Shown: positions 2,767 through 21,545 of the stretch, piece by piece | Layout of the letters: each line of letters opens with the position of its first letter | Numbering within the stretch: position 1 is the first letter of the stretch | Origin: an uncultured candidatus Porisulfidus sp. | GTDB taxonomy: Bacteria; Pseudomonadota; Gammaproteobacteria; Poriferisulfidales; Poriferisulfidaceae | Length of the DNA stretch: 64,000 bases | Assembly: GCA_965204575.1 (NCBI GenBank) | Contig: OZ241993.1 | Location: forward strand, 32,001-96,000 | Direction of reading: 5' to 3' | Notes under the pieces: model-generated | What the model was told of the DNA's origin: nothing | The model's input: the letters and a program-made list of their open reading frames with translations, nothing else | The model's database searches: none | Made by a program: the position numbers and the translations under genes

Positions 2767-4452
2767 ATGCCCCGCCTGCCGCGCCCGCATTCCAGCGTGA
2801 TCGTCGACGGACTGGAACGGGCTCCTGCCCGCTCCATGCTTCGTGCCGTTGGTTTCAGCGACGGCGACTTCCGCCGCCCCCAGATCGGCATCGCTTCCAC
2901 CTGGAGCGAAGTGACGCCTTGCAACATGCACATCGACCGGCTGGCCCGCCAAGCGGCCGCAGGTGCCAACCAGGCTGGCGGCAAGTCCGTCACCTTCAAC
3001 ACCATCACCATATCCGATGGCATCTCCATGGGCACCGAGGGCATGAAATATTCCCTGGTCTCCCGGGAACTGATCGCCGACAGCATCGAAGCGGTAACCG
3101 CCGGAGAAGGTTTCGACGCACTGGTGGCGATCGGCGGCTGCGACAAGAACATGCCGGGCTGTCTGATGGCGATCGCGCGACTCAATCGTCCGGCCGTGTT
3201 CGTTTATGGCGGGACTATCGCCCCCGGACGGCACCATGGAAAGAACATCGACATCGTCTCGGTATTCGAAGCAGTCGGGGAACGCGCCAAGGGCAAGATT
3301 TCCGGGAAGGAATTGACCTCGATTGAATCCTGCGCCATTCCCGGGGCTGGTTCGTGCGGTGGCATGTACACCGCCAACACCATGGCCTCGGCAATCGAAG
3401 CGCTGGGCATGAGCCTGCCCGGCAGTTCGGCACAGATGGCAACCTCCAAGGCCAAGCGCGAAGACTGCCGCCAGGCTGGCGAAATGGCAGTCCAGTTGCT
3501 GAAACTCGGTGTCACTCCGCGCGACATCATGACGCGCAAGGCCTTCCTCAACGCCATCGCCGTAGCAACCGCTCTGGGCGGCTCCACCAATGTCGTCCTG
3601 CATCTGCTGGCCATGGCCCGCTCCATGGGCGTGCGGCTTTCACTGGACGATTTCGCGCGGGTCGGCCGCAAGGTGCCCGTGGTCGCGGACCTGCGCCCGT
3701 CCGGCCGCTACATGATGTCGGAACTGGTCCGGATTGGAGGGATTCGCCCCCTGATGAAACGCCTACTGGACGCCGGGCTCCTGCACGGAGACTGTCGGAC
3801 GGTCACCGGGCGCACCATGGCCGAAGATCTCGACAAAACGCCGGACTACCCGGAAAACCAGAAGATCATCCTCCCGTTTTCCGACCCGATCAAGCCGGAC
3901 GGCCACCTGGTCATCCTGCGCGGAAACCTGGCGCCCGAGGGCGCCGTGGCCAAGATCTCCGGCAAGGAGGGTTCCACCTTCGCCGGACGAGCCCGCGTGT
4001 TCGACTCCGAGGAACGGGCCCTGCGCGCCATCCTTGACGGCTCCATCCGTGCCGGCGACATAGTGGTGATCCGCTACGAAGGCCCCCGCGGCGGACCTGG
4101 CATGCGCGAGATGCTCGCCCCGACTTCCGCCATCATGGGTCGCGGGCTCGGCAGCGACGTGGCCCTGATTACCGATGGACGCTTTTCCGGCGGTTCACAC
4201 GGATTTGTGATCGGGCACATCACTCCAGAGGCTGCCGTCGGTGGCCCATTAGCCCTAGTGAAAAACGGTGACCGCATCGCCATCGACGCCACGCGCCGGG
4301 AAATCACGCTGAAGGTGCCGAAAAGGGAACTCGACCGACGCCGGAAAGCCTTGAAGCCGCGCCGCCCACGCTACCGCACCGGTGTGCTCGCAAAATACGC
4401 GCGCAGCGTACGTTCAGCCTCGGAAGGCGCAGTCACCGACGTGCCGGACTGA
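2767..4452 (+). CDS. ilvD: Dihydroxy-acid dehydratase
   Basis: [47 protein letters not shown]. Confidence 0.97.
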
Positions 4453-4484
4453 ATTCCCTCCTGATTCTCACCCGGTCCTCCAAT

Positions 4485-4527
4485 ACTGACTTTAAATCAG
4501 TCGGTAGTTTGAATTTAAATTGGTCGG
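4485..4527. promoter_or_regulatory. Tandem imperfect palindromes (TGACTTTAAATCAGTCGG / TGAATTTAAATTGGTCGG, 23-bp period)
   Basis: Direct repeat at 4487-4504 and 4510-4527, each centred on TTTAAA, in the AT-rich region upstream of porin copy 1. Confidence 0.45.
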
Positions 4528-4847
4528 AAATGGTTTCCTGGATATTCGTTCTGCAGTCCAGAATCTGTACATGCCTGAGTAAAATCATCTTATATCATTG
4601 TTAAAAAAGTAATTTACTAGATTTATCTCCAACATGACTCCTGCAAATAAATCCCTTGGCTCCATACGGAAAACTCGTTTATATTCTTCGCTGAAATGAG
4701 CAAATGCAAGCCAGAATTTAAATTAGCCAATACCTTTACATAATATTCCAGACTGCCCCCCTTTACGAAGTAACTCAATATTATTTCTAATCGCCATGGC
4801 TTTGATTGTAGCACCGTTCGGTGCGCAAGCAGAGACGTGGAACATTT

Positions 4848-6195
4848 GGGTCTTCACGGAATTGTGTGGAACGGAGGTCTCGGATACAGGTCGAGTCCGC
4901 CCAAGTGAAAGTAGATGGCTTCACGGAAGCGCTCGCGGCTGCGGTAGCCGCAGGCTTGGCGTTTGATCCACTGCACTTTCGCGTTGATGGATTCCGACAG
5001 GGCATTGCTGATGCCCAGCACGGCGGCGTTCAGGATCTCTTCCACATGCTTCCAGATCGTCTCCGCCGCCTTGATCACCGGGGCCAGCCGCGAGCGTTTC
5101 GCCGCCTGATGCCAGGCTTCCCAGGCGTAGTAGGCCAGGGTCCGGTCGCGCAACGCCCAGATCTCCGCCGCCCGTTCCTTCAGGATCCAGGCCCGGGCCA
5201 CCTTCAGGTCCTCCTTGCGTAACGCTTCCAGACGCTGGCGCCGGGCCGGGCCCATCCGCTCCTCGGTCATCAGCCAGTCGAAACGGGTGCCCGCCAGGCG
5301 GGCATCGCCTTGCGCCAGCAACCTCTTGTGCTCCGCCCGGCGCACCTGGTCCACCGCCTGGTTGAGCAGGCTCACCACATGGAAGCGGTCGATGCAGATG
5401 TCGGCCTGGGTGTACTTCAGGGTCGCCGCGATGTAGGCCGGCGCCAGATCCATCGCGGCCGTCTCAACCTGCGCGCAGGCGGCGTCGCCCAACTCTCTGA
5501 AAAACGGCTCCACCGCTGCCTGATCCTTGCGGTCTCCCACATACAGCACCACCCCCTTGCGCCCGGACGCCGGCTTCTGATCGACCACGATCGAGACATA
5601 TTCATGCCGCTTCTGGAACGAGGTCTCGTCGATGCCGATCCGCTTCGGTGCCTGCGGCCCGCGTCGCGCCAATCCGCGCCGCACCGCCCGCGAGCGGATG
5701 CCGTCCGCCTGATGCCAGCTCAGCCCCCACTTCTGCGCCACCGCCCGCAGCGGCATCGCCAGCAGGTCCTCGATCACCTCCGTCTCGAAGCGCATCGTGA
5801 AACGACCGTGGGACTCCGCCCACGGCACCGCGATCTGCCGAATCCCGTGCTCCGGGCAGTTCGCCCGCGGCACCTCGGCCCGCAAGGTCGTGCGCCAACC
5901 CATCAAATCCAGGTCCCGCCACTCCCGCGCCTTCGTGTCGTGCCGCTTGCACAAGGTCCCGCATTCCGGACACGGCACCAGGCTCTTCGCCTGATAGGCC
6001 AACTCGATCGTGACGCGCCCCGGGCTGCGATCCTCGCCTCCTTCCCGACAGGACACCGAGACCACCTCCCACGGCGGATGCAGAAACATCAGCATCTCGC
6101 AAAACTTGTTCACTGCTTCCATCAGACCACACTCCAGACTAAAACGCGGAAGCATTATCCCTGACCCTCTATTCCACACAAAACCGTGATGCGCC
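4848..6195 (-). mobile_element. ISL3-family insertion sequence
   Basis: Imperfect terminal inverted repeats GGGTCTTCACGGAATTGTGTGGAA / GGCGCATCACGGTTTTGTGTGGAA; perfect 8-bp target duplication GAACATTT at 4840-4847 and 6196-6203. Confidence 0.95.
4854..6122 (-). CDS. ISL3-family transposase
   Basis: CPECG/CPEHG zinc finger, IGIDETSF, AMDL, DRFHVV, SNALSESINAK..KRQACGYR. Start uncertain (6122 or 6179). Confidence 0.93.
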   Translation of the reverse strand: MEAVNKFCEMLMFLHPPWEVVSVSCREGGEDRSPGRVTIELAYQAKSLVPCPECGTLCKRHDTKAREWRDLDLMGWRTTLRAEVPRANCPEHGIRQIAVPWAESHGRFTMRFETEVIEDLLAMPLRAVAQKWGLSWHQADGIRSRAVRRGLARRGPQAPKRIGIDETSFQKRHEYVSIVVDQKPASGRKGVVLYVGDRKDQAAVEPFFRELGDAACAQVETAAMDLAPAYIAATLKYTQADICIDRFHVVSLLNQAVDQVRRAEHKRLLAQGDARLAGTRFDWLMTEERMGPARRQRLEALRKEDLKVARAWILKERAAEIWALRDRTLAYYAWEAWHQAAKRSRLAPVIKAAETIWKHVEEILNAAVLGISNALSESINAKVQWIKRQACGYRSRERFREAIYFHLGGLDLYPRPPFHTIP

Positions 6196-8017
6196 GAACA
6201 TTTATGGTTGGCAGAATCATTCTTGGGAGTTTGTGGATATCGACGGCGGACGCAGCTTCGACCGGATCCAGTCCAACGCGGGCAACATCGGATTCGCGGC
6301 GAGCGTGCCCACCGGCTTCAACGACCTCTCGGTCAACGTCCAGTGCGAGCAGTTCATGTACGTGAACCACTTCGCGGGCGGCACCGGCTGGTGCAACCGC
6401 AACTCCAAGATCGGCCTGTCTCACCCGCAGATGGGTGAGCTGATGCTGGCCACCTGGCTGCTCCCTTACAACGAGGGCGTGGCGCAGTGGGTCGACCCGT
6501 TCTATGACGCTGGCGCGGACTCGCATACCAGCATCATGGGATCGGTCGGTGCCAATACCATCTTCTACAACACTGGTGACTTCGACTTCCAGGCATCCGG
6601 CTCGAGTCCGGGCTCTGCTCAGACCGAGTTCAACTACCAGGTTGGCGGCTACGACACGGGCTTCAACCGTCGTCAGGAGAACATCATCCAGTACTGGTCT
6701 CCGAACTGGAACGGCTTCGTGTTCCGCTTCGCGTGGACCGCTGGCAACCGCGATGAGACCCCTCACATGGGAGGGGAAATCGACCCGGTAATCCGTTCCT
6801 CAAGCCTGGCCTACACCAACGGCCCAGTGTGGGCGGCGGTGACCTGGCAGGACCACGAGGACTGGACCGCGGCTTCCGTCGGCCAGATGGAGACCTCGGA
6901 CGCGGAGAGCCTGCGCGTGGCCGGCCGCTACATCATGGACATGGGCGGCGGCATGAGCGTTCAGGTCTCGGCGATGTGGGAGACCCTGGAGTACGAGTTC
7001 AACGGCGTGACCAACGTCGATGCGGCCATGACTGCGTTCGGGTACTCCAACTTCGGCACCTACGACCTGTATCACGACGAGAGCAAGATCGGAGCGACTG
7101 AGGCGAGTGGAAGGGCTCCTATGCCGATCGAGCCAACCGAAGACCAAGTCCAAGTCAAGGCTGAGATGACCCTTGAACTTTTCTGGGATCTGTTCACCGA
7201 TGGCGAAGATACCCCGGCGATAAACACTCTCGTCGCTGACTCCGACGGCGCTGCAATCACTGTCCCTGCCCTTCTGTCACCTGCGGCAGACAATCCTCTA
7301 ACGGCCGCGGATGAAAGCAAGACGACCGGTTGTAGTGCTGCCACGGCCGCTGTGGAAATGTGTAATGGCGGTCTCAACGTCTTGGCGGAGCCTGGCGGCA
7401 CCAACGCACTGAGGACTGCGGTCGAAGATCTGAACAATGCCCGTGATATGGATAGCACGACGGATGGTATTCAAGCGCCAGACCTGACAGTGGGTGCAGA
7501 TGCTGGTACCGTTGCCGAGGGTGATAGAGTCGGCGGCACTGTGGCTCAGAGAAACGCCCAGGTCCAGTACCGGCTGCTGGTCGACGCAGCCACAGCCGCT
7601 GCTAAGGCAAAGCTTGGAATGACGGAAGATACCCGTATGCCAGCACGCACTGAAGCAGAGAACAGAGCTGCGATGACTATGGGCCAGAACGTCAAGATCG
7701 AGCGCGACGCCTGGATGGTGTCGGGCAAGATCAAGTTCGGCGGCCCCATCGACTTCCGCTTCTCCTACATGGACGCGGACGACCTCGAGGTCTCCTGCGC
7801 ATCCTGCTCGGGCGACTGGGACGAAACCGCGGCCGACGCCTTCAACGTGGGCATCTTCTACACCATGCCGGCCGGCACGGAACTGCGCCTGACCTACTCC
7901 GAAGTCAACAACGACGACAACGGAACCTACGGTCAGGGCATCTCCGGTACCGGACTGGGTTCGCCTGGTGTGGAGATCGAGATGTTCGCAGTCGGTATCG
8001 TGCACTGGTTCGACTAA

Positions 8018-8075
8018 TCCAGTCAGCCAAGGCACACCTTACAAAGCAGGCGCCCTCCGGGGCGCCTGTTTTTTT
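8018..8075 (+). terminator. Porin 3' repeat with intrinsic terminator, copy 1
   Basis: AGGCACACCTTACAAA followed by GCAGGCGCCC-TCCG-GGGCGCCTGT and a T-run. Confidence 0.85.
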
Positions 8076-8154
8076 GCAGATGAAGCAGTCATCCAACTGG
8101 CGAGGAGGAGGCTGACAGACAGTGTATGATGCCCGGTATCATTGAGAAAATGTT

Positions 8155-9708
8155 ATGGATCGCCGCCAGCTTCCGATTGGAATTCAGGACTTCCGAGTCC
8201 TCCGCGAAGAGAGACATTACTATGTGGACAAGACTGCCTTCATCCGGCAGTTAGTGGAGGGGGGGCGCCATTATTTCCTGTCGCGGCCGCGGCGCTTCGG
8301 CAAGAGCCTGCTGATCGACACCCTGCAGGAACTGTTCGAAGGTAACGAGCCCCTGTTCCAGGGGCTGGCTATCCACGGGCACTGGGACTGGTCGGTCCGG
8401 CATCCGGTGCTGCGGCTGAGCTTTGGCGGGAAATACACCGAACCGGGAGACCTGGAAGCGAACATCCAGGACAAGCTGAACGGAATCGAGGAAGGTTTAG
8501 GGCTCGATCCGGAGCCTCGGGCCTTGCTCGGCCCGGAACGCCTGCAATCGCTTCTGCGCCGCCTGCACCGGACCACCGGTCGACAAGTGGTGGTGCTGAT
8601 CGACGAATACGACAAGCCAATCCTGGACGTGTTGAAGAATCCAGAACTGGCGGAAGCAAACCGAGACTACCTGCGCGGCTTCTACGGGATCATCAAGGAC
8701 AGCGCGAAACATGTGCGCTTCGTGTTCGTGACTGGGGTGAGCATGTTCTCGAAGGCGAGCCTGTTCTCGGGGCTCAACAACCTGAAGGATATCAGCCTGG
8801 ATCCGCGCTATGCCGCGATCTGCGGCTATACCGATCGCGACATCGATACCGTGTTCGCCCCGGAGTTGCCGGGGCTCGACCGGGAGGAGATCCGGGCCTG
8901 GTACAACGGCTACGGCTGGCGCGGCGAGGAGAAGCTCTACAACCCGTATGGCGTTTTGCTGCTGTTCGACAGCCGGGAGTTCCAACCACACTGGTTCGAG
9001 ACCGCGACCCCGACTTTTCTGTACCAACTGATGCGGGAACGGAGCGTGAATCCTCTGGAGCTGGAGAGCCGGCGGGTTGATGTGGCGCGCCTGTCGAAGC
9101 TGGATGTGAGCGACATGGACCTGCATGCGCTGATGTTTCAGACGGGCTACCTGACAATCGCGGGGGAGGAGCGCATCGGGACGGAGACCTTCTACCGGCT
9201 GGAATACCCGAACCTAGAGGTTCGGCAGAGTTTCAGTAAGGGTCTGATGGTGGATCTGGGCCGGGAAAGCGAAGAGGTCACGATGCAGGCACATGCCCTG
9301 CTGGGGCTGCTGGAGTCGAACGACTTCGAGGGATTTGCCCGACACCTCCAGTCCTATCTGGCTGGGGTTCCGCACCCGTGGTGGGAGGGGGCGGGAGAAT
9401 TAGGCCGGTACGAGTCGCATTATGCGGCGATGCTGTACATGACGCTGCGTGCGGTGGGGGCGGAGGTTCATGCGGAAGAATCTTCCAGCCACGGTCGTTC
9501 GGACCTAGTGATCCGGCAGGGAGGCCAGGTTTTCGTGCTGGAACTCAAGGTCGCGGAGGGAGAGGACGAGGCGGAAAGTACGCTGGATGCGGCACTGGAC
9601 CAGATTCAGGATCGGGGCTATGCGGAGAAGTACCGATCTGAGGGCGAGCCGGTGTACCTTCTGGGGCTGGTGTTCGGGAAGGAGGAGCGAACGTTACTTG
9701 GAATGTGA
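8155..9708 (+). CDS. AAA-ATPase-like domain fused to a C-terminal PD-(D/E)XK nuclease domain
   Basis: LPIGIQDF, YYVDKT, LSRPRRFGKSL (Walker A), VLIDEYDKP, GRSDL..VLELK..ALDQIQDRGY. Confidence 0.9.
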   Translation: MDRRQLPIGIQDFRVLREERHYYVDKTAFIRQLVEGGRHYFLSRPRRFGKSLLIDTLQELFEGNEPLFQGLAIHGHWDWSVRHPVLRLSFGGKYTEPGDLEANIQDKLNGIEEGLGLDPEPRALLGPERLQSLLRRLHRTTGRQVVVLIDEYDKPILDVLKNPELAEANRDYLRGFYGIIKDSAKHVRFVFVTGVSMFSKASLFSGLNNLKDISLDPRYAAICGYTDRDIDTVFAPELPGLDREEIRAWYNGYGWRGEEKLYNPYGVLLLFDSREFQPHWFETATPTFLYQLMRERSVNPLELESRRVDVARLSKLDVSDMDLHALMFQTGYLTIAGEERIGTETFYRLEYPNLEVRQSFSKGLMVDLGRESEEVTMQAHALLGLLESNDFEGFARHLQSYLAGVPHPWWEGAGELGRYESHYAAMLYMTLRAVGAEVHAEESSSHGRSDLVIRQGGQVFVLELKVAEGEDEAESTLDAALDQIQDRGYAEKYRSEGEPVYLLGLVFGKEERTLLGM

Positions 9709-9769
9709 GCCGAGCGGTCATCCTGCCAACCATAGTTTGTCCGGCAACACCACAAAAGTCACGGATGAC

Positions 9770-10226
9770 AAACAAATCTTCGGCAAGATCCTCATTCTCA
9801 TACAAGATCATGACGTCAAAGAGATCACGCGGATGTTGCCGGTCAAGTGCTGCATGCAGTTTGCCACTGTAGAGGTCTTCAAACGCAAGGATATTCATTT
9901 CGGCGAAACCGAAATGCTCTGTCACCACGTCCGAGACCCTCATCGTCGGCGGCGGATACACGGTTTCGCGAGTCACCGCGGAGGTTTCGATCTTTATTGG
10001 CAATGGTCTCCGTAATCCGGCTGAGCGTCATGTCGATATCATTCAACGCAACCGCGCGGTCAGTGACTGGCAAGTAAGCAAGGTCTATGTCTATGGAAAG
10101 GCGCGGCATGTCCCGGTAGAACAGATTGATGGCTGTCCCGCCCTTAAGGGCGAAGGCTTCCTCGGCAGCGATATCCGGCAGTACGCCCAAGAGCAGGCGG
10201 ACTTGTTCGGCATAGCGATCAAGCAT
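9770..10226 (-). pseudogene. AbiEii nucleotidyltransferase toxin, frameshifted and truncated
   Basis: FALKGGTAINLFYRDMPRLSIDIDL in one frame and GKLHAALDRQHPRDLFDV in another; C-terminus missing. Confidence 0.85.
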
Positions 10227-10605
10227 TGGCTTTGGCCTCTTCCCCGTCGACAAGATTTTCCGGCACGTAGATCCGATATGCCGAGTGGACCCTGCCGCCC
10301 TTCACCAAGGCACGCGGCCCGGAACCGAAATCGATTTTCGATGCATCGAGATGCTTGCGCCACGGATGTCGATGCCTGTCCGAGAAAACGAAGAACAGCC
10401 GGCGCACTTTCACGCTCCGGCAACGCATAAGCAGCGCCATCAATTGCTTGGGCCGCAGGGTTACGAGTCCCTCGAAGATCTTGTCCAGGTTGTCGAAACC
10501 CGCATGGTGTGGCAGATCATCAAGTGCTTCGAGGATGGCGCGCTCTGGAGACGATGCCTTGACAGGCCAATGCCACACGCTCACCGTACGGCTGATTCCC
10601 TCCAC
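10219..10605 (-). pseudogene. AbiEi type IV antitoxin, C-terminal fragment
   Basis: SSPERAILEAL..GLVTLRP..CRSVKVRRLF..IDFGSGPR..YRIYVP; the 5' part is cut off at the orphan terminator repeat. Confidence 0.8.
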
Positions 10606-10663
10606 GACAGTCTAGCTAAGGCACACCACACAAAGCAGGCGCCCTTCGGGGCGTCTGTCTTTT
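10606..10663 (+). repeat. Orphan copy of the porin 3' repeat/terminator (copy 2)
   Basis: GACAGTCTAGCTAAGGCACACCACACAAAGCAGGCGCCCTTCGGGGCGTCTGTCTTTT aligns with 13220-13277 and 8018-8075, but no porin precedes it. Confidence 0.85.
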
Positions 10664-10737
10664 AGACATATAATATTGGCGAAAGACGCGAGTTGGTTCG
10701 CCACAGTAGAACATCAGATATTTATGGAGGATTAGTC

Positions 10738-10992
10738 ATGCAAAAAGTCACATCTACTGAATATGAGAAAAACTTGGATTATTTTCATACTAAGGCAATC
10801 AAGTCTCCATTATCAGTTACCCGCCATGAGGGAAGCGCATTGGTAATTTTGTCTGCCAAGGAGTATGAACGCCTTATATGCCGCGACCGTCGAGCATTTG
10901 CCATAGAGGAATTGTCTGATGAAGAAGTCGAGGCGATTCTAAAGGCTGAACCACCAGAAGAAGCCAAGCAATACGACCATGAATTAGTCTAG
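10738..10992 (+). CDS. Phd/YefM-family antitoxin
   Basis: MQKVTSTEY..AIKSPLSVTRHEG..VILSAKEYERL; GGAGG RBS upstream. Confidence 0.8.
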   Translation: MQKVTSTEYEKNLDYFHTKAIKSPLSVTRHEGSALVILSAKEYERLICRDRRAFAIEELSDEEVEAILKAEPPEEAKQYDHELV

Positions 10993-10996
10993 CGAC

Positions 10997-11425
10997 GTGG
11001 CACTCCCTGAACCAGTACCGGGACTTGTCATTCGCTACGATTACCTTTGGCGACATGAAGCCGAACAAGGACGAATAGAAGCATCCAAATATCGACCCAG
11101 TGTGGTTGTTCTATCAATAACCGGCAAAGAAACTGACAAGAAAGTTGTGTGGGTTGCGCCAATTACTCGTCGCCAGCCTCATGATGCATCAGCCGCAATC
11201 GAGATACCAAATCAAGTAAAACAACGCCTTGGTCTGGACGCAGAGAAGTCGTGGATCATCATTTCCGAGGTAAATAGGTTCATATGGCCGGGACCGGATA
11301 TCCGTCCGGTCAGCCAAGGGCAGTGGGCGTACGGTGTGTTACCACATCGTCTATTTCAAGCAATCCTTGATAGGCTGAAAATTTATCGCGATCAACGCCA
11401 GACAAAGCAGGTTCAACGTGATTAA
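10997..11425 (+). CDS. PemK/MazF-like toxin
   Basis: PGLVIRYDYLW..KYRPSVVV..VAPIT..LGLDAEKSWII.SEVNRFIWPGPD; directly follows the antitoxin. Confidence 0.7.
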   Translation: MALPEPVPGLVIRYDYLWRHEAEQGRIEASKYRPSVVVLSITGKETDKKVVWVAPITRRQPHDASAAIEIPNQVKQRLGLDAEKSWIIISEVNRFIWPGPDIRPVSQGQWAYGVLPHRLFQAILDRLKIYRDQRQTKQVQRD

Positions 11426-11475
11426 TCCCCACTTGCTGAATATTGACCAATTAAAAATTTCTAATATTTTTTGCC

Positions 11476-13219
11476 TTGGCGGCGATTCCATTCGCAGCCC
11501 AGGCCGAAACATGGAATATTTATGGTTGGCAGAATCATTCTTGGGAGTTTGTGGATATCGACGGCGGACGCAGCTTCGACCGGATCCAGTTCAACGCGGG
11601 CAACATCGGATTCGCGGCAAGCGTGCCCACCGGCATGAACGACATCTCGGTTAACGTGCAGTGCGAACAGTTTACGTACTACAACCAACTCGGTGGAAAA
11701 ACCGGCTGGTGTAACCGTAACTCCAAGATCGGCCTGTCTCACCCGCAGATGGGTGAGGTCATGCTGGCTACCTGGCTGCTCCCTTACAACGAGGGCGTGG
11801 CACAGTGGGTCGACCCGTTCTATGACGCTGGCGCGGACTCGCATACCAGCATCATGGGTTCGGTCGGTGCCAATACCATCTTCTACAACACCGGCGAGTT
11901 CGGCGCGTTCGACTACACTGTGGCCGGAGCCTACGACACCGGCTTCAATCGTCGCCAGGACAACATCATCCAGTACTGGTCGCCGAACTGGAACGGCTTC
12001 GTGTTCCGCTTCGCGTGGACCGCCGGCAACCGGGATGAGACAAAAGCCCGGAACGACCACGAGATCGATCCGGTGATTCGTTCCTCAAGCCTGGCCTACA
12101 CCAACGGCCCGCTGTGGGCGGCGGTGACCTGGCAGGACCACGAGGACTGGACCGCGGCTTCCGTCGGCCAGATGGAGGCCTCGGACGCGGAGAGCCTGCG
12201 CGTGGCCGGCCGCTACATCATGGATATGGGCGACGGCATGAGCGTTCAGATCTCGGCGATGTGGGAGACCCTGGAGTACGAGTTCAACAACGTGAGCAAT
12301 GTCGATGCGGCCATGGCTGCGTTCGGCTACAGCAACTTCGGCACCTACGACTTGTTCCACAACGGGAACAAGATTGTAGGGACTGATGCGGTTGCGGCAA
12401 AAAAAGCGGTCTACACGACCTATGACGGCCAGACCGACGAAGAGAAGGAAAATGCGGTCAAGGCACAGAAGACCCTTGAACTTGTGCGTAGTTTGTTCTA
12501 CGACGAAGCCACTGACGGCGGCGGACGAAAGTGCGACCGGTTGCGCTGCCGCTACTCCCCCGACGTGTACTGATCTCAGTCTCAACGTCTTGGCGGATAC
12601 TAATACCGCTACTGACGGGCAGCAGACTGTACTTAAGGCTGCGATCGATGCTCTGAACAATGCCCGCGACACTGATGCCTCCACGGATGGCGTACAGGCG
12701 CCGGACTTGTCTGACGCGGATAGTGGTACTACGGCCCAGAGAGACGCCGAGACGCAATACCAGCTACTGGTCGAGGCGGCTACGAAAGCAGCGATGGAGG
12801 CATTCGAGCCTGAACTGGTCACGGCTGCCGTAGATGCAGTCGCGGCCAAGACGGCGGCAGAAAACAGAGCTGCAATGACTATGAACCAAAACGTCAAGAT
12901 CGAGCGTGACGCCTGGATGGTGTCCGGCAAGATCAAGATGGGCGGTCCCATCGACTTCCGCTTCTCCTACATGGACGCGGATGACCTTGAGGTCTCCTGC
13001 GGCTCTTGCTCGTGTGACTGGGACGAAACCGCGGCCGACGCATGGAACGTGGGCATCTTCTACACCATGCCGGCCGGCACGGAACTGCGTCTGACCTACT
13101 CCGAAGTCTCCAACGACAAAAACGGAACCTACGGCCAGGGCATCTCCGGTACCGGACTGGGTACTGCTGGTGCGGAGATCGAGATGTTCGCAGTCGGTAT
13201 CGTGCACTGGTTCGACTAA
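11476..13219 (+). pseudogene. Giant porin copy 2, frameshifted near 12508
   Basis: ORFs 11476-12573 and 12386-13219 together match copy 1. The frame changes at FYDE|PLTAADES, where copy 1 has about 30 extra codons. An in-frame TAA at 11452 precedes the signal-peptide-like KFLIFFALAAIPFAAQA. Confidence 0.85.
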
Positions 13220-13277
13220 GACAGTCCAACTGAGGCACACCTTACAAAGCAGGGCCCTTCGGGGCGCCTGTTTTTTT
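13220..13277 (+). terminator. Porin 3' repeat with intrinsic terminator, copy 3
   Basis: AGGCACACCTTACAAAGCAGGGCCCTTCGGGGCGCCTG followed by a T-run. Confidence 0.8.
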
Positions 13278-13450
13278 ATGGGACACTAGTGAAATAAGAA
13301 AACGGCATTGGCAGTACATTTCAGACAGGAAGAAAACCGGAAATTGGACGGCATACTTAGCATACAATCAGACGGAATAGTAACCGTAAATTATCCGATA
13401 GGTTAGTGTGCAATAAGTCGGAGAAGTTGAGTCAAGTCGATCGGCCTCCT

Positions 13451-20020: not shown

Positions 20021-21545
20021 ACAACCCGCCTTCGATGTCCCGGAACTCAAGCCGTACCCGGTCATCCCGAAGCTGGTCGAGGATACGATGGCGCACAGCC
20101 AGCCGTTCGTCGCCAAGCCCGACTTCCAGGAACCGCTCGGCTTCCCGGGTGAACTGGTCGACGACTGGCAGGACGTCGCGATCAAGAAGATGGGCGAGTT
20201 GACGGACCGTTACCGCTCGCTGCAGGTGTTCCTCGATTCCTGCGTCAAGTGCGGCGCCTGCACCGACAAGTGCCACTACTATCTCGGCACCACCGACCCC
20301 AAGAACATGCCGGTCGCCCGCCAGGACCTGTTCCGCAAGGTGTACCGGCGCCACTACACGTTCGCCGGCAAGTACCTCCCGTGGCTGGTCGGCGCCGAGG
20401 ACCTGACCGAAGAGGTGCTCGACGACTGGTACAAGTACTTCCACCAGTGCTCGCAGTGCCGCCGCTGCTCGGTCTACTGCCCCTACGGCATCGACACCGC
20501 GGAGATCTCGATGGCGGCGCGCGAGGTCATGGATGCGATCGGCAAGGGCCAGAAGTACTGCAACGAGATCATCGGCAAGGTGCACACCATCGGCAACAAC
20601 CTGGGCCTGCCGGAACCGGCCCTGCTGGACACCCTGGAAGGCCTGGAGGAAGAAGTCGAGGAAGATACCGGCGTTGCGGTCAAGTTCCCGCTGGACCAGA
20701 AAGGCGCCGACATCCTGCTGGTGACCCCCTCGGCCGATTTCTTCGCCGAACCCCACGTCGACGGCCTGATCGGGTACGCCAAGGTCCTGCACGAGGCCGG
20801 GCTGTCCTGGACCCTGAGCTCGCACGCTTCGGAAGCCGCCAACTTCGGCATGTTCATCGGCAGCTACGAAAACATGCGCAAGGTCGCCCTGCGCATCCGG
20901 GAGGCGGCGCTGGACCTCGGCGTGAAGCGCATCGTGTTCGGCGAATGCGGCCACGCCTGGCGGGTCGCGTACAGCTTCCTCAACACGCTGGCCGGCCCCT
21001 TCGACTTCCTGGACCCCCGATACCCGGTCCCCCAGCACATCTGCGAAGTCACCCATGGCCTGATCCAGGAAGGCAAGCTCCGGCTCAACAAGTCGGAAAA
21101 CGACCACATGGTGCTGACCTACCACGATTCCTGCAACGTGGCCCGCGCCTCGCGCATGGGCGACATCCCGGGCGGACAGTTCGAGATCCCGCGCGCCATC
21201 ATCCGCGCCAGCTGCAACCATTTCTACGACATGCCGGCCGATACCGTCCGCGAAGCGACCTACTGCTGCGGCGGCGGCGGCGGGCTTCTGACCGACGACC
21301 TGATCGAGTTGCGCGTCAAGGGCGCCCTGCCCCGCATGGAGGCCCTCAAACAGGTTGTCGAGGACCACGGCGTCACCCACATGGCCGCCATCTGCGCCAT
21401 CTGCAAGAGCCAGTTCGCCAAGGTCCTGACCTACTACGGATTCCAGATGGACCAGATCGTCAGCGTTCACCAGTTGGTGAGCGAGGCCGTCATCCTGACC
21501 GGAAGCGAACAAGAGAAAGAGGCCGAGATGAGCGAGGCCGCTTGA
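20013..21545 (+). CDS. dsrK: DsrK, Fe-S/CCG-domain protein
   Basis: CVKCGACTDKC, CSQCRRCSVYC, GECGHAWR, YCCGGGGG. Confidence 0.97.
   Translation: MAEQPAFDVPELKPYPVIPKLVEDTMAHSQPFVAKPDFQEPLGFPGELVDDWQDVAIKKMGELTDRYRSLQVFLDSCVKCGACTDKCHYYLGTTDPKNMPVARQDLFRKVYRRHYTFAGKYLPWLVGAEDLTEEVLDDWYKYFHQCSQCRRCSVYCPYGIDTAEISMAAREVMDAIGKGQKYCNEIIGKVHTIGNNLGLPEPALLDTLEGLEEEVEEDTGVAVKFPLDQKGADILLVTPSADFFAEPHVDGLIGYAKVLHEAGLSWTLSSHASEAANFGMFIGSYENMRKVALRIREAALDLGVKRIVFGECGHAWRVAYSFLNTLAGPFDFLDPRYPVPQHICEVTHGLIQEGKLRLNKSENDHMVLTYHDSCNVARASRMGDIPGGQFEIPRAIIRASCNHFYDMPADTVREATYCCGGGGGLLTDDLIELRVKGALPRMEALKQVVEDHGVTHMAAICAICKSQFAKVLTYYGFQMDQIVSVHQLVSEAVILTGSEQEKEAEMSEAA

Follow-up and report, generated by a model that had tools for sequence, protein, structure and literature searches.

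In this work we analysed a stretch of 64,000 nucleotides (hereafter the window; contig OZ241993.1, positions 32,001–96,000, assembly GCA_965204575.1) from an uncultured candidatus Porisulfidus sp., which carries two damaged copies, A and B, of a large porin gene. These copies belong to a family of five, and only one member, C3, located upstream of the window, has a ribosome-binding site (RBS) and a start codon. C3 is a mosaic of tracts that it shares with other copies, and the family recurs in related genomes. This organization is probably that of one expression locus accompanied by archived full-length cassettes, which are exchanged by gene conversion and by inversion. The genome of the window (G000) is a single 1.82-Mb contig of unrecorded assembly method; it was compared with the genomes of congeners (G001–G015, 1.2–2.0 Mb), and close relatives with flanks 95–99% identical were recovered from a sponge metagenome run.

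BLAST searches of the whole contig with A and B detected a further three full-length copies, which all precede the window: C1 (genome positions 4412–6361, + strand, 650 open codons), C2 (15469–13550, − strand, 640 open codons) and C3 (21428–23320, + strand, about 8.7 kb before the window start). The first-pass annotation of the window, made from its letters alone, had proposed a search for further paralogues and for an intact locus elsewhere in the genome, and both are there. The 5' end of C3 consists of AGGAG, a 9-nt spacer and ATG-AAA-AAA-CCA, a string found once in the 1.82 Mb, and a promoter-like sequence (TTGACA-16-GACAAT) lies 87 nt upstream. Homology with the remaining four copies begins at the fifth signal-peptide codon (TTTCTAAT), and because of this C1, C2, A and B, none of which has a start codon, are predicted to be untranslatable in place. 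In C2 a TAA stands exactly at the expected position of the ATG; C1 and A share the same flank, ..ATATTA, directly before TTTCTAAT (the DNA upstream of A ends in ..AATATTA, the boundary type of C1); in B, ATT..TAA replaces the ATG. No in-frame start codon precedes the signal-peptide codons of A or B. The TTTCTAAT sequence occurs 22 times in the genome, six of them at porin 5' ends or in an orphan fragment. A reading of the C2 5' end as GTG followed by seven A residues, suggestive of homopolymer phase variation, was ruled out: the DNA is AGT-AAAAAAAA, with an in-frame TAA. About 240 nt located 5' of the expressed start (L002:5190–5427 and the orthologous regions) are conserved across six species; they contain promoter-like hexamers and, in a leader of about 85 nt, three hairpin-like palindromes, and may constitute a regulatory 5' untranslated region. 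All seven Porin_4 matches listed genome-wide fall inside C1, C2, A or B, and the two halves of C3 equal A and C2; on the matches listed, this family is to all appearances the only Porin_4-type porin of the organism.

Copies A and B had both been described as disabled, and the closer analysis bears this out. The 5' piece of A (4784–4847, + strand) comprises signal-peptide codons 5–20 and the first mature codons, and is separated from the body of the gene (6196–8017, +; 609 mature codons open to the stop, with a hypervariable insert at about 7071–7689) by a 1348-bp insertion sequence (IS) of the ISL3 family (4848–6195, −). The transposase open reading frame (ORF) of this element spans 4854–6179 (DDE_Tnp_ISL3, E 8e-64), its terminal inverted repeats share 23 of 30 positions, and it is bordered by an 8-bp target duplication, GAACATTT, at 4840–4847 and 6196–6203. 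The insertion is recent, because the two other copies of the element in the genome are both 100% identical to it. Copy B (11458–13219, +), start-less and with diverged signal-peptide codons, lacks 110 nt near 12508 compared with its closest paralogue segment, a length that is not a multiple of three, and its open pieces lie in two frames (11476–12573 and 12386–13219, ORF translations). Both match the Porin_4 profile (PF13609), with 48.6 bits for A and 49.2 bits for B against a cut-off of 27. Each is followed by a terminator-like hairpin, with a T-run and within the 3' homology common to all copies in the case of A (8025–8074, +), and 74% identical to the family reference in the case of B (13228–13277, +).

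When A and B are aligned (6196–8090 versus 11514–13295), conserved and divergent segments alternate, as had been described before; to call the conserved blocks almost identical, as the earlier description did, is an overstatement. Identity amounts to 339 of 367 positions (92.4%) for 6204–6570 versus 11522–11888, to 264 of 281 (94.0%) for 6790–7070 versus 12075–12355, and to 303 of 328 (92.4%) for 7690–8017 versus 12892–13219; it drops to 67% at 6340–6385, 35% at 6571–6650 and 54% at 6755–6790 (A positions), and the central insert, 7071–7689, is 48% identical with large indels. The contrasting peptide pairs by which the first-pass annotation had illustrated this pattern are present in the two translations. 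The signal-peptide DNA is, as it had stated, more diverged between A and B (40 of 64 positions identical), and that of A is 100% identical to C3 from codon 5 on.

The five-way alignment, in which A was taken without its IS, reveals the mosaic structure of C3. The part of C3 that begins at TTTCTAAT does not differ from A for 866 alignment columns (178–1043), and the two copies are identical again over columns 1993–2357 (189 + 151 columns), which correspond to the 3' end and downstream flank; in the centre C3 is identical to C2, with one mismatch, over columns 867–2105 (389 + 849 columns). Outside these tracts, the identity of C3 with A and with C2 is only 38–85%. Several smaller patches exist, for example between C1 and B, which are 91% identical in one 100-column window whose flanking windows are at 40–48%. 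We submitted the 621 polymorphic ungapped sites to 5000 shuffles: the longest concordant runs, 249 and 257 sites, were matched in none of them, and the runs of all ten copy pairs in at most three; rate heterogeneity inflates such tests, though not to the extent observed. A statistic similar to the pairwise homoplasy index gave an incompatibility score of 0.276, compared with 0.420 ± 0.007 after permutation, a value matched in 0 of 1000 shuffles. Divergence is thus strongly non-uniform and the genes are mosaic, which answers the question of recombination raised by the first-pass annotation, and within-genome tracts of the same kind are found in G001 and G008. That the identical tracts are long and break off within conserved coding blocks indicates that homologous gene conversion has taken place between the copies.

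The family is multi-copy and clustered in all 15 congeners. Genomes from the other taxonomic families of the order that matched carry copies of about 450 amino acids, mostly one or two each. Start sites were surveyed in 40 porin copies from nine genomes (G000 and the clusters of eight congeners), and the general pattern in the genus is that of one or two start-bearing copies beside one to eight start-less ones. Exactly one copy with an RBS and an ATG is present in G001, G008, G009 and G015, and two are present in G013; G010 has one, and a second of its copies has an in-frame ATG further upstream; an ATG is found in all four copies of G006 and in neither of the two copies of G004. The homology boundary lies at (CCA)TTTCTAAT in 40 of 40 copies, across flank classes and species, and the flank types that precede it are few and recur between species: one, in which TAA or TAG replaces the ATG, is shared by six copies in G000, G001, G008, G010 and G015, and another, ..AATAT(T/C/A)A, by C1 and A in G000 and by copies in G001 and G009. 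The signal-peptide DNA is the same or nearly the same among copies of one genome and different between genomes. G006 differs in several respects: its four porins (G006:C1:442001–454000) are shorter (429–447 mature amino acids) and are oriented + − + −, an AGGAG-like site precedes the two minus-strand genes only, and a Phage_integrase gene (tyrosine recombinase) lies between porins 2 and 3.

Among the 28 start-less copies 24 are open, over 430–630 codons; 23 of these run uninterrupted to the C-terminal VHWFD and the other is A, split by its IS. The four broken ones are B, one copy in G013 and two in G004. The ratio of nonsynonymous to synonymous substitutions (dN/dS) between start-less positional orthologues is 0.09–0.18 at dS 0.56–1.17 (0.09–0.15, at dS up to 1.17, for those of three species), and it is 0.09–0.12 between expressed orthologues. 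Since the two ranges are the same, the start-less copies appear to have stayed protein-coding through speciation even though they would be untranslatable where they stand. These properties support the idea that they are maintained as coding archives rather than being debris.

The inversion module and its recombinase are features that the first-pass annotation had not included in its interpretation. The DNA that separates C2 from C3 contains an ORF with a BRCT domain and a gene of IS110 type (DEDD_Tnp_IS110 and Transposase_20, E 1e-15 to 1e-19). The order start-less porin (−), BRCT gene (+), recombinase (−), start-bearing porin (+) is found in G000, G001, G008, G009 and G013, and a variant order in G010. 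The recombinase gene is single copy in G000 and in 13 of the 16 genomes of the genus, and in 10 genomes it is syntenic and no more than 3 kb away from a porin; its orthologues are 75–92% identical, with invariant D73, E123, D156 and D159 and an invariant GLVP....SG motif, while identity with a genuine multi-copy IS110-family element of the same genome is 24%. Its dN/dS is 0.04–0.09, and that of the BRCT ORF is 0.11–0.17. By its sequence the protein is a member of the IS110/Piv-type family; it is presumably not the transposase of an active IS, because its gene has one copy, conserved in position in 10 genomes and constrained to this degree, and because no guide RNA was found (see below). G006 is the one genome in which all porins have their own ATG, and a search of it detected no IS110-type orthologue; this observation concerns one genome only.

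When G009 and G000 are compared, with the outer flank that they share (MlaA ... CbbQ, penicillin amidase, an AAA_14 ATPase whose orthologues are 89% identical, and the 3' part of the porin) as reference, the inner segment, which carries the BRCT gene, the recombinase gene, the leader and the start, points in opposite directions. In G009 the start is joined to the positional orthologue of the start-less C2. Both states of the promoter-bearing segment therefore exist in the genus, and the comparison shows one apparent inversion of the divergent porin pair during evolution.

Together, these results lead us to propose the following mechanism. C3 alone would supply the promoter-like site, the leader, the RBS and the start, and A and B would be archived, untranslatable members of the family. 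Mosaic genes would arise by homologous gene conversion, for which the conserved barrel-coding blocks, the signal-peptide DNA and the terminator-bearing 3' end would serve as anchors. Inversion between the divergent porin pair of the segment that carries promoter and start, BRCT gene and recombinase gene would transfer the start to the second copy of the pair. This would probably lead to variation of the exposed loops and of the insert of the major porin. Silent copies would supply new loops to the expressed gene, the inversion would be used as a switch catalysed by the recombinase, as that of pilin is by Piv, and selection would be exerted by phages or by the host; these last steps are inferred. 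A stronger version of this proposal is possible but doubtful: a domesticated IS110/Piv-family DEDD recombinase and its BRCT partner would run a porin 'shufflon' that flips the sole promoter, leader and start from one to the other of two divergent full-length cassettes, while conversion with the archives, including A and B, reshuffles the insert, with the result that a non-pathogenic symbiont varies its sole major porin in a programmed way, presumably against phages or host phagocytosis.

Several observations weigh against a system of archived cassettes and one expression site, or limit what it can explain. The first is the direction of transfer. The C2/C3-type insert shares 74% identity with the one in the expressed G001 copy (654 nt aligned, six gapped) and 44% with the one in the silent partner of that copy, and because of this difference C2 probably received its centre from the expression locus; transfer of the C2/C3 tract was thus probably out of the expression site and into a silent copy, contrary to the prediction of a pure donor model, and it seems that archives are not only read but also overwritten. 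The suggestion of the first-pass annotation that A and B act as silent donors is consequently upheld only in part, by the 866-column identical tract that A shares with the expressed locus and by the start-less copies having been kept coding, but not with regard to transfer from donor to expression site. Second, the low dN/dS of the silent copies could be due to repeated overwriting by the expressed copy and not to selection, and the decay of A and B, by IS insertion and by the 110-nt deletion, shows that constraint does not act on every copy. Third, inversion has limits: G000, G001 and G008 are in one orientation state, so that inversion is too infrequent to scramble species, and C1, A and B are in direct orientation relative to C3 and cannot be switched by a simple inversion. 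Fourth, the recombinase orthologue lies away from porins in G015 and G004. L002 1–10000 has no Rfam match to a bridge or seek RNA, and the region upstream of the recombinase gene has no consistent k-mer complementarity (k ≥ 7) to the junctions in four genomes, a search that split guides shorter than 7 nt would escape; the consensus fold of this region is weak (−6.8 kcal/mol, four sequences). Finally, contigs from public runs X1–X4 placed on the C3 region contain no joint showing an inversion or a variant C3, as far as contigs, in which rare variants drop out, can reveal it. Cross-mapping of the paralogues A, C1 and C2, together with the IS, accounts for the joints and loose ends of X1–X4, and the zero cover of the related strain of run X4 over the porin bodies was not used as evidence. 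A metagenome scan for the start-site string yielded two contigs, from other species (73–82% identity), which end inside the porin 5' region and leave the body unlinked.

Some of these points would be equally expected of an ordinary family of decaying paralogues, with sporadic gene conversion (concerted evolution), plain pseudogenes and a recombinase that is simply a retained old IS. A has been struck by an active IS and B is frameshifted, the region is rich in toxin–antitoxin and mobile genes, the C2/C3 tract resembles homogenization from the expressed copy, and no population-level variation is seen in the contigs, from which rare variants are dropped. We nevertheless consider this explanation unlikely, given the 24 long open frames among the start-less copies of nine genomes, the low dN/dS of start-less positional orthologues at such high dS, a 5' boundary that stays at TTTCTAAT whatever the flank class or species, and the synteny and constraint of the single-copy recombinase gene.

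Alternatively, all copies might be expressed independently, from non-canonical or internal starts (TTG, ATT) or by slippage in the A-run, which would amount to Opa-type phase variation or to differential expression of tandem outer-membrane protein genes. Frames that are open and constrained agree with this idea, as do the ATG of all four G006 copies and two copies, G009 L020:11312 and G010 L026:3862, in which an ATG is followed by A5 rather than A6 and is one base off frame (the latter being the copy with the in-frame upstream ATG). It is made very unlikely by the TAA or TAG that six copies in five genomes have exactly at the ATG position, by the lack of an AGGAG and leader before start-less copies, when the leader is conserved at one or two loci per genome, and by the signal peptides that internal TTG starts would produce in G000, which have 10–12 residues and no n-region. 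That the mosaic is an artefact, i.e. a collapsed or chimeric consensus over 2-kb repeats, as might be feared for paralogues 6–15 kb apart on a single contig assembled by an unrecorded method, is very improbable, as in independent word-based contigs from three runs the unique segment between C2 and C3 (6025 nt) recurs with 0 differences, the A- and C3-specific continuations at the breakpoints are reproduced as well (loose ends L029 9439 and 10356), comparable within-genome tracts exist in G001 and G008, and a 656-nt contig of the centre common to C2 and C3 is covered about twice as deeply as its unique neighbours (59 versus 27–32 in X1), a weak hint since contig depth is not copy number. One expression locus with archived cassettes therefore remains the explanation that we favour.

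The predicted mature porin has about 610 amino acids, and an insert of about 230 residues after residue 295 is its most variable part in both sequence and length. The C3 product has the N-terminus MKKPFLIAMALIVAPFGAQA/ET and the C-terminus ..VHWFD, the last residue being D and not an aromatic one. The nearest atlas clusters of the family are Porin_4 clusters, at 0.96–0.97, and a profile search of solved structures gave no match. In the AlphaFold model, whose mean predicted local distance difference test score is 57.5, strands are predicted, but the model is too weak for them to be counted or for loops to be placed on the outer face; on this low-confidence model, conservation is 0.87 at strand and 0.55 at non-strand positions.

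The surroundings of the copies bear traces of other rearrangements. Upstream of the window, one convergent AAA_14/DUF4143 ATPase gene lies 3' of C1 (L001:6475–7785, −) and another 3' of C2 (L001:12110–13456, +). The two ATPases are paralogues, 59% identical, and porin and ATPase therefore seem to have been duplicated as a unit; an 89% identical orthologue of the C2-side ATPase lies beside the start-bearing porin of G009. An orphan stretch of about 35 nt at genome positions 21150–21185, which is 276 nt before the start of C3, looks like a porin 5' end (GTG, A-run, CCATTTCTAATCGCC..). It is followed by unrelated DNA, adjoins an inserted Phd/PIN-like toxin–antitoxin pair (about L002:4486–5138), and may have been left behind when the expression site was rearranged at an earlier time. 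Downstream of C3, a 1459-bp IS of the IS110 family (genome 24145–25603, L029:12148–13598), of which a 99.9% identical copy is present at genome 713–715 kb, splits an AlbA_2/HATPase_c_4 regulator gene. The related strain of run X4 lacks this IS, as its contig joins L029 12148 to 13598.

Inside the window, a predicted AAA-ATPase_like protein with a PD-(D/E)XK (PDDEXK_9) domain is encoded directly 3' of A (8155–9708), and the homology between A and C3 stops at the start of its gene (about 8165). It is followed by an AbiEii/AbiEi_3 type IV toxin–antitoxin pair (9545–10605, −), apparently broken: the AbiEii match spans profile positions 1–82 of 238 and the AbiEi_3 match 57–157 of 157. Directly abutting the start of the truncated AbiEi_3 gene is an orphan terminator-like 50-mer (10614–10663, +), 88% identical to the reference copy and with no adjoining porin body. 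It matches nothing in the genome except sequences downstream of porins, and may be the remnant of a lost porin copy. Immediately upstream of B (10693–11425) are a Phd/YefM-like antitoxin gene, below the Pfam cut-off, and a PemK/MazF-like toxin gene, exactly on it. A and B look like the decaying fringe of the porin family.

Surface variation from an expression site and silent copies is, to our knowledge, known almost only from pathogens under antibody pressure. The systems concerned rely on diverse machineries: the vsa recombinase of Mycoplasma pulmonis is a tyrosine recombinase, and in the sap locus of Campylobacter fetus a promoter-bearing segment inverts, in a RecA-dependent reaction, between opposed full-length cassettes that have conserved 5' regions and keep their own start codons. 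For the two omp2 genes of Brucella, we know of no expression-site logic. As described in an excerpt of PMC4534519, vsa has one expression site, with a promoter and N-terminal coding DNA, to which inversion joins a silent gene devoid of its 5' end. The porin locus is similar in that the start and about four codons are unique and in that the segment between the divergent pair occurs in both orientations across species; it differs in that vsa encodes lipoproteins with tandem repeats, and not full-length porins, and in having a DEDD recombinase of the IS110 type and conversion tracts within the genes. It also resembles the proposed Omp1 (omp1A–D) inversion system of Dichelobacter nodosus (PMC4196234, in part), an animal pathogen, unlike the present genus, which comes from sponge samples and in which one pair flanks the recombinase gene and the other copies are spread over 45 kb. 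Piv, a relative of the IS110/IS1111 DEDD transposases, catalyses inversion, and the SG of its G--P----SG motif is required, according to the part of PMC11187229 consulted. Like Moraxella Piv, the orthologues found here keep G--P----SG and the DEDD residues and are single copy at what is predicted to be a surface-protein locus; unlike the Piv group (315–330 amino acids in the same source), they have about 390 amino acids, are nearer the IS110 subgroup and would target a porin, not a pilin.

With Anaplasma msp2/p44, Neisseria pilE/pilS and Treponema tprK, as far as they are covered in excerpts of PMC4534519 and PMC10063172, the family shares a single expression locus, promoter-less copies, conserved flanks and mosaics, and Msp2 possibly has a porin function too (PMC4534519, in part). 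However, the donors of msp2, pilS and tprK are truncated and transfer is one-way, and the bacteria concerned are pathogens exposed to antibodies. The porin copies, by contrast, are full length, and for at least one tract the movement seems to have been in the reverse direction. The likeness to truncated pilS and vls cassettes drawn by the first-pass annotation does not hold in its strict form, as the silent copies are short by only about four codons. In Brucella, the two porin genes omp2a and omp2b have been reshaped by gene conversion (PMC7050475, in part). The combination of a general porin, full-length cassettes, an IS110-type recombinase with a BRCT protein and a sponge-associated host with a small genome sets this system apart from the known ones. 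Searches of a limited literature collection on sponge-symbiont porin phase variation and on porin silent-copy gene conversion yielded no description of such a system.

In conclusion, if the proposed organization is correct, the loops of the porin would vary, probably with respect to phage receptors or host uptake, under selection strong enough for a symbiont to keep several untranslatable 2-kb genes in its reduced genome. It would also account for the assembly breaks at porin genes in this genus. The recombinase would then be a natural case of an IS110-type enzyme that the host retains as one of its own genes, at a fixed position, which would bear on the domestication of guide-RNA recombinases.

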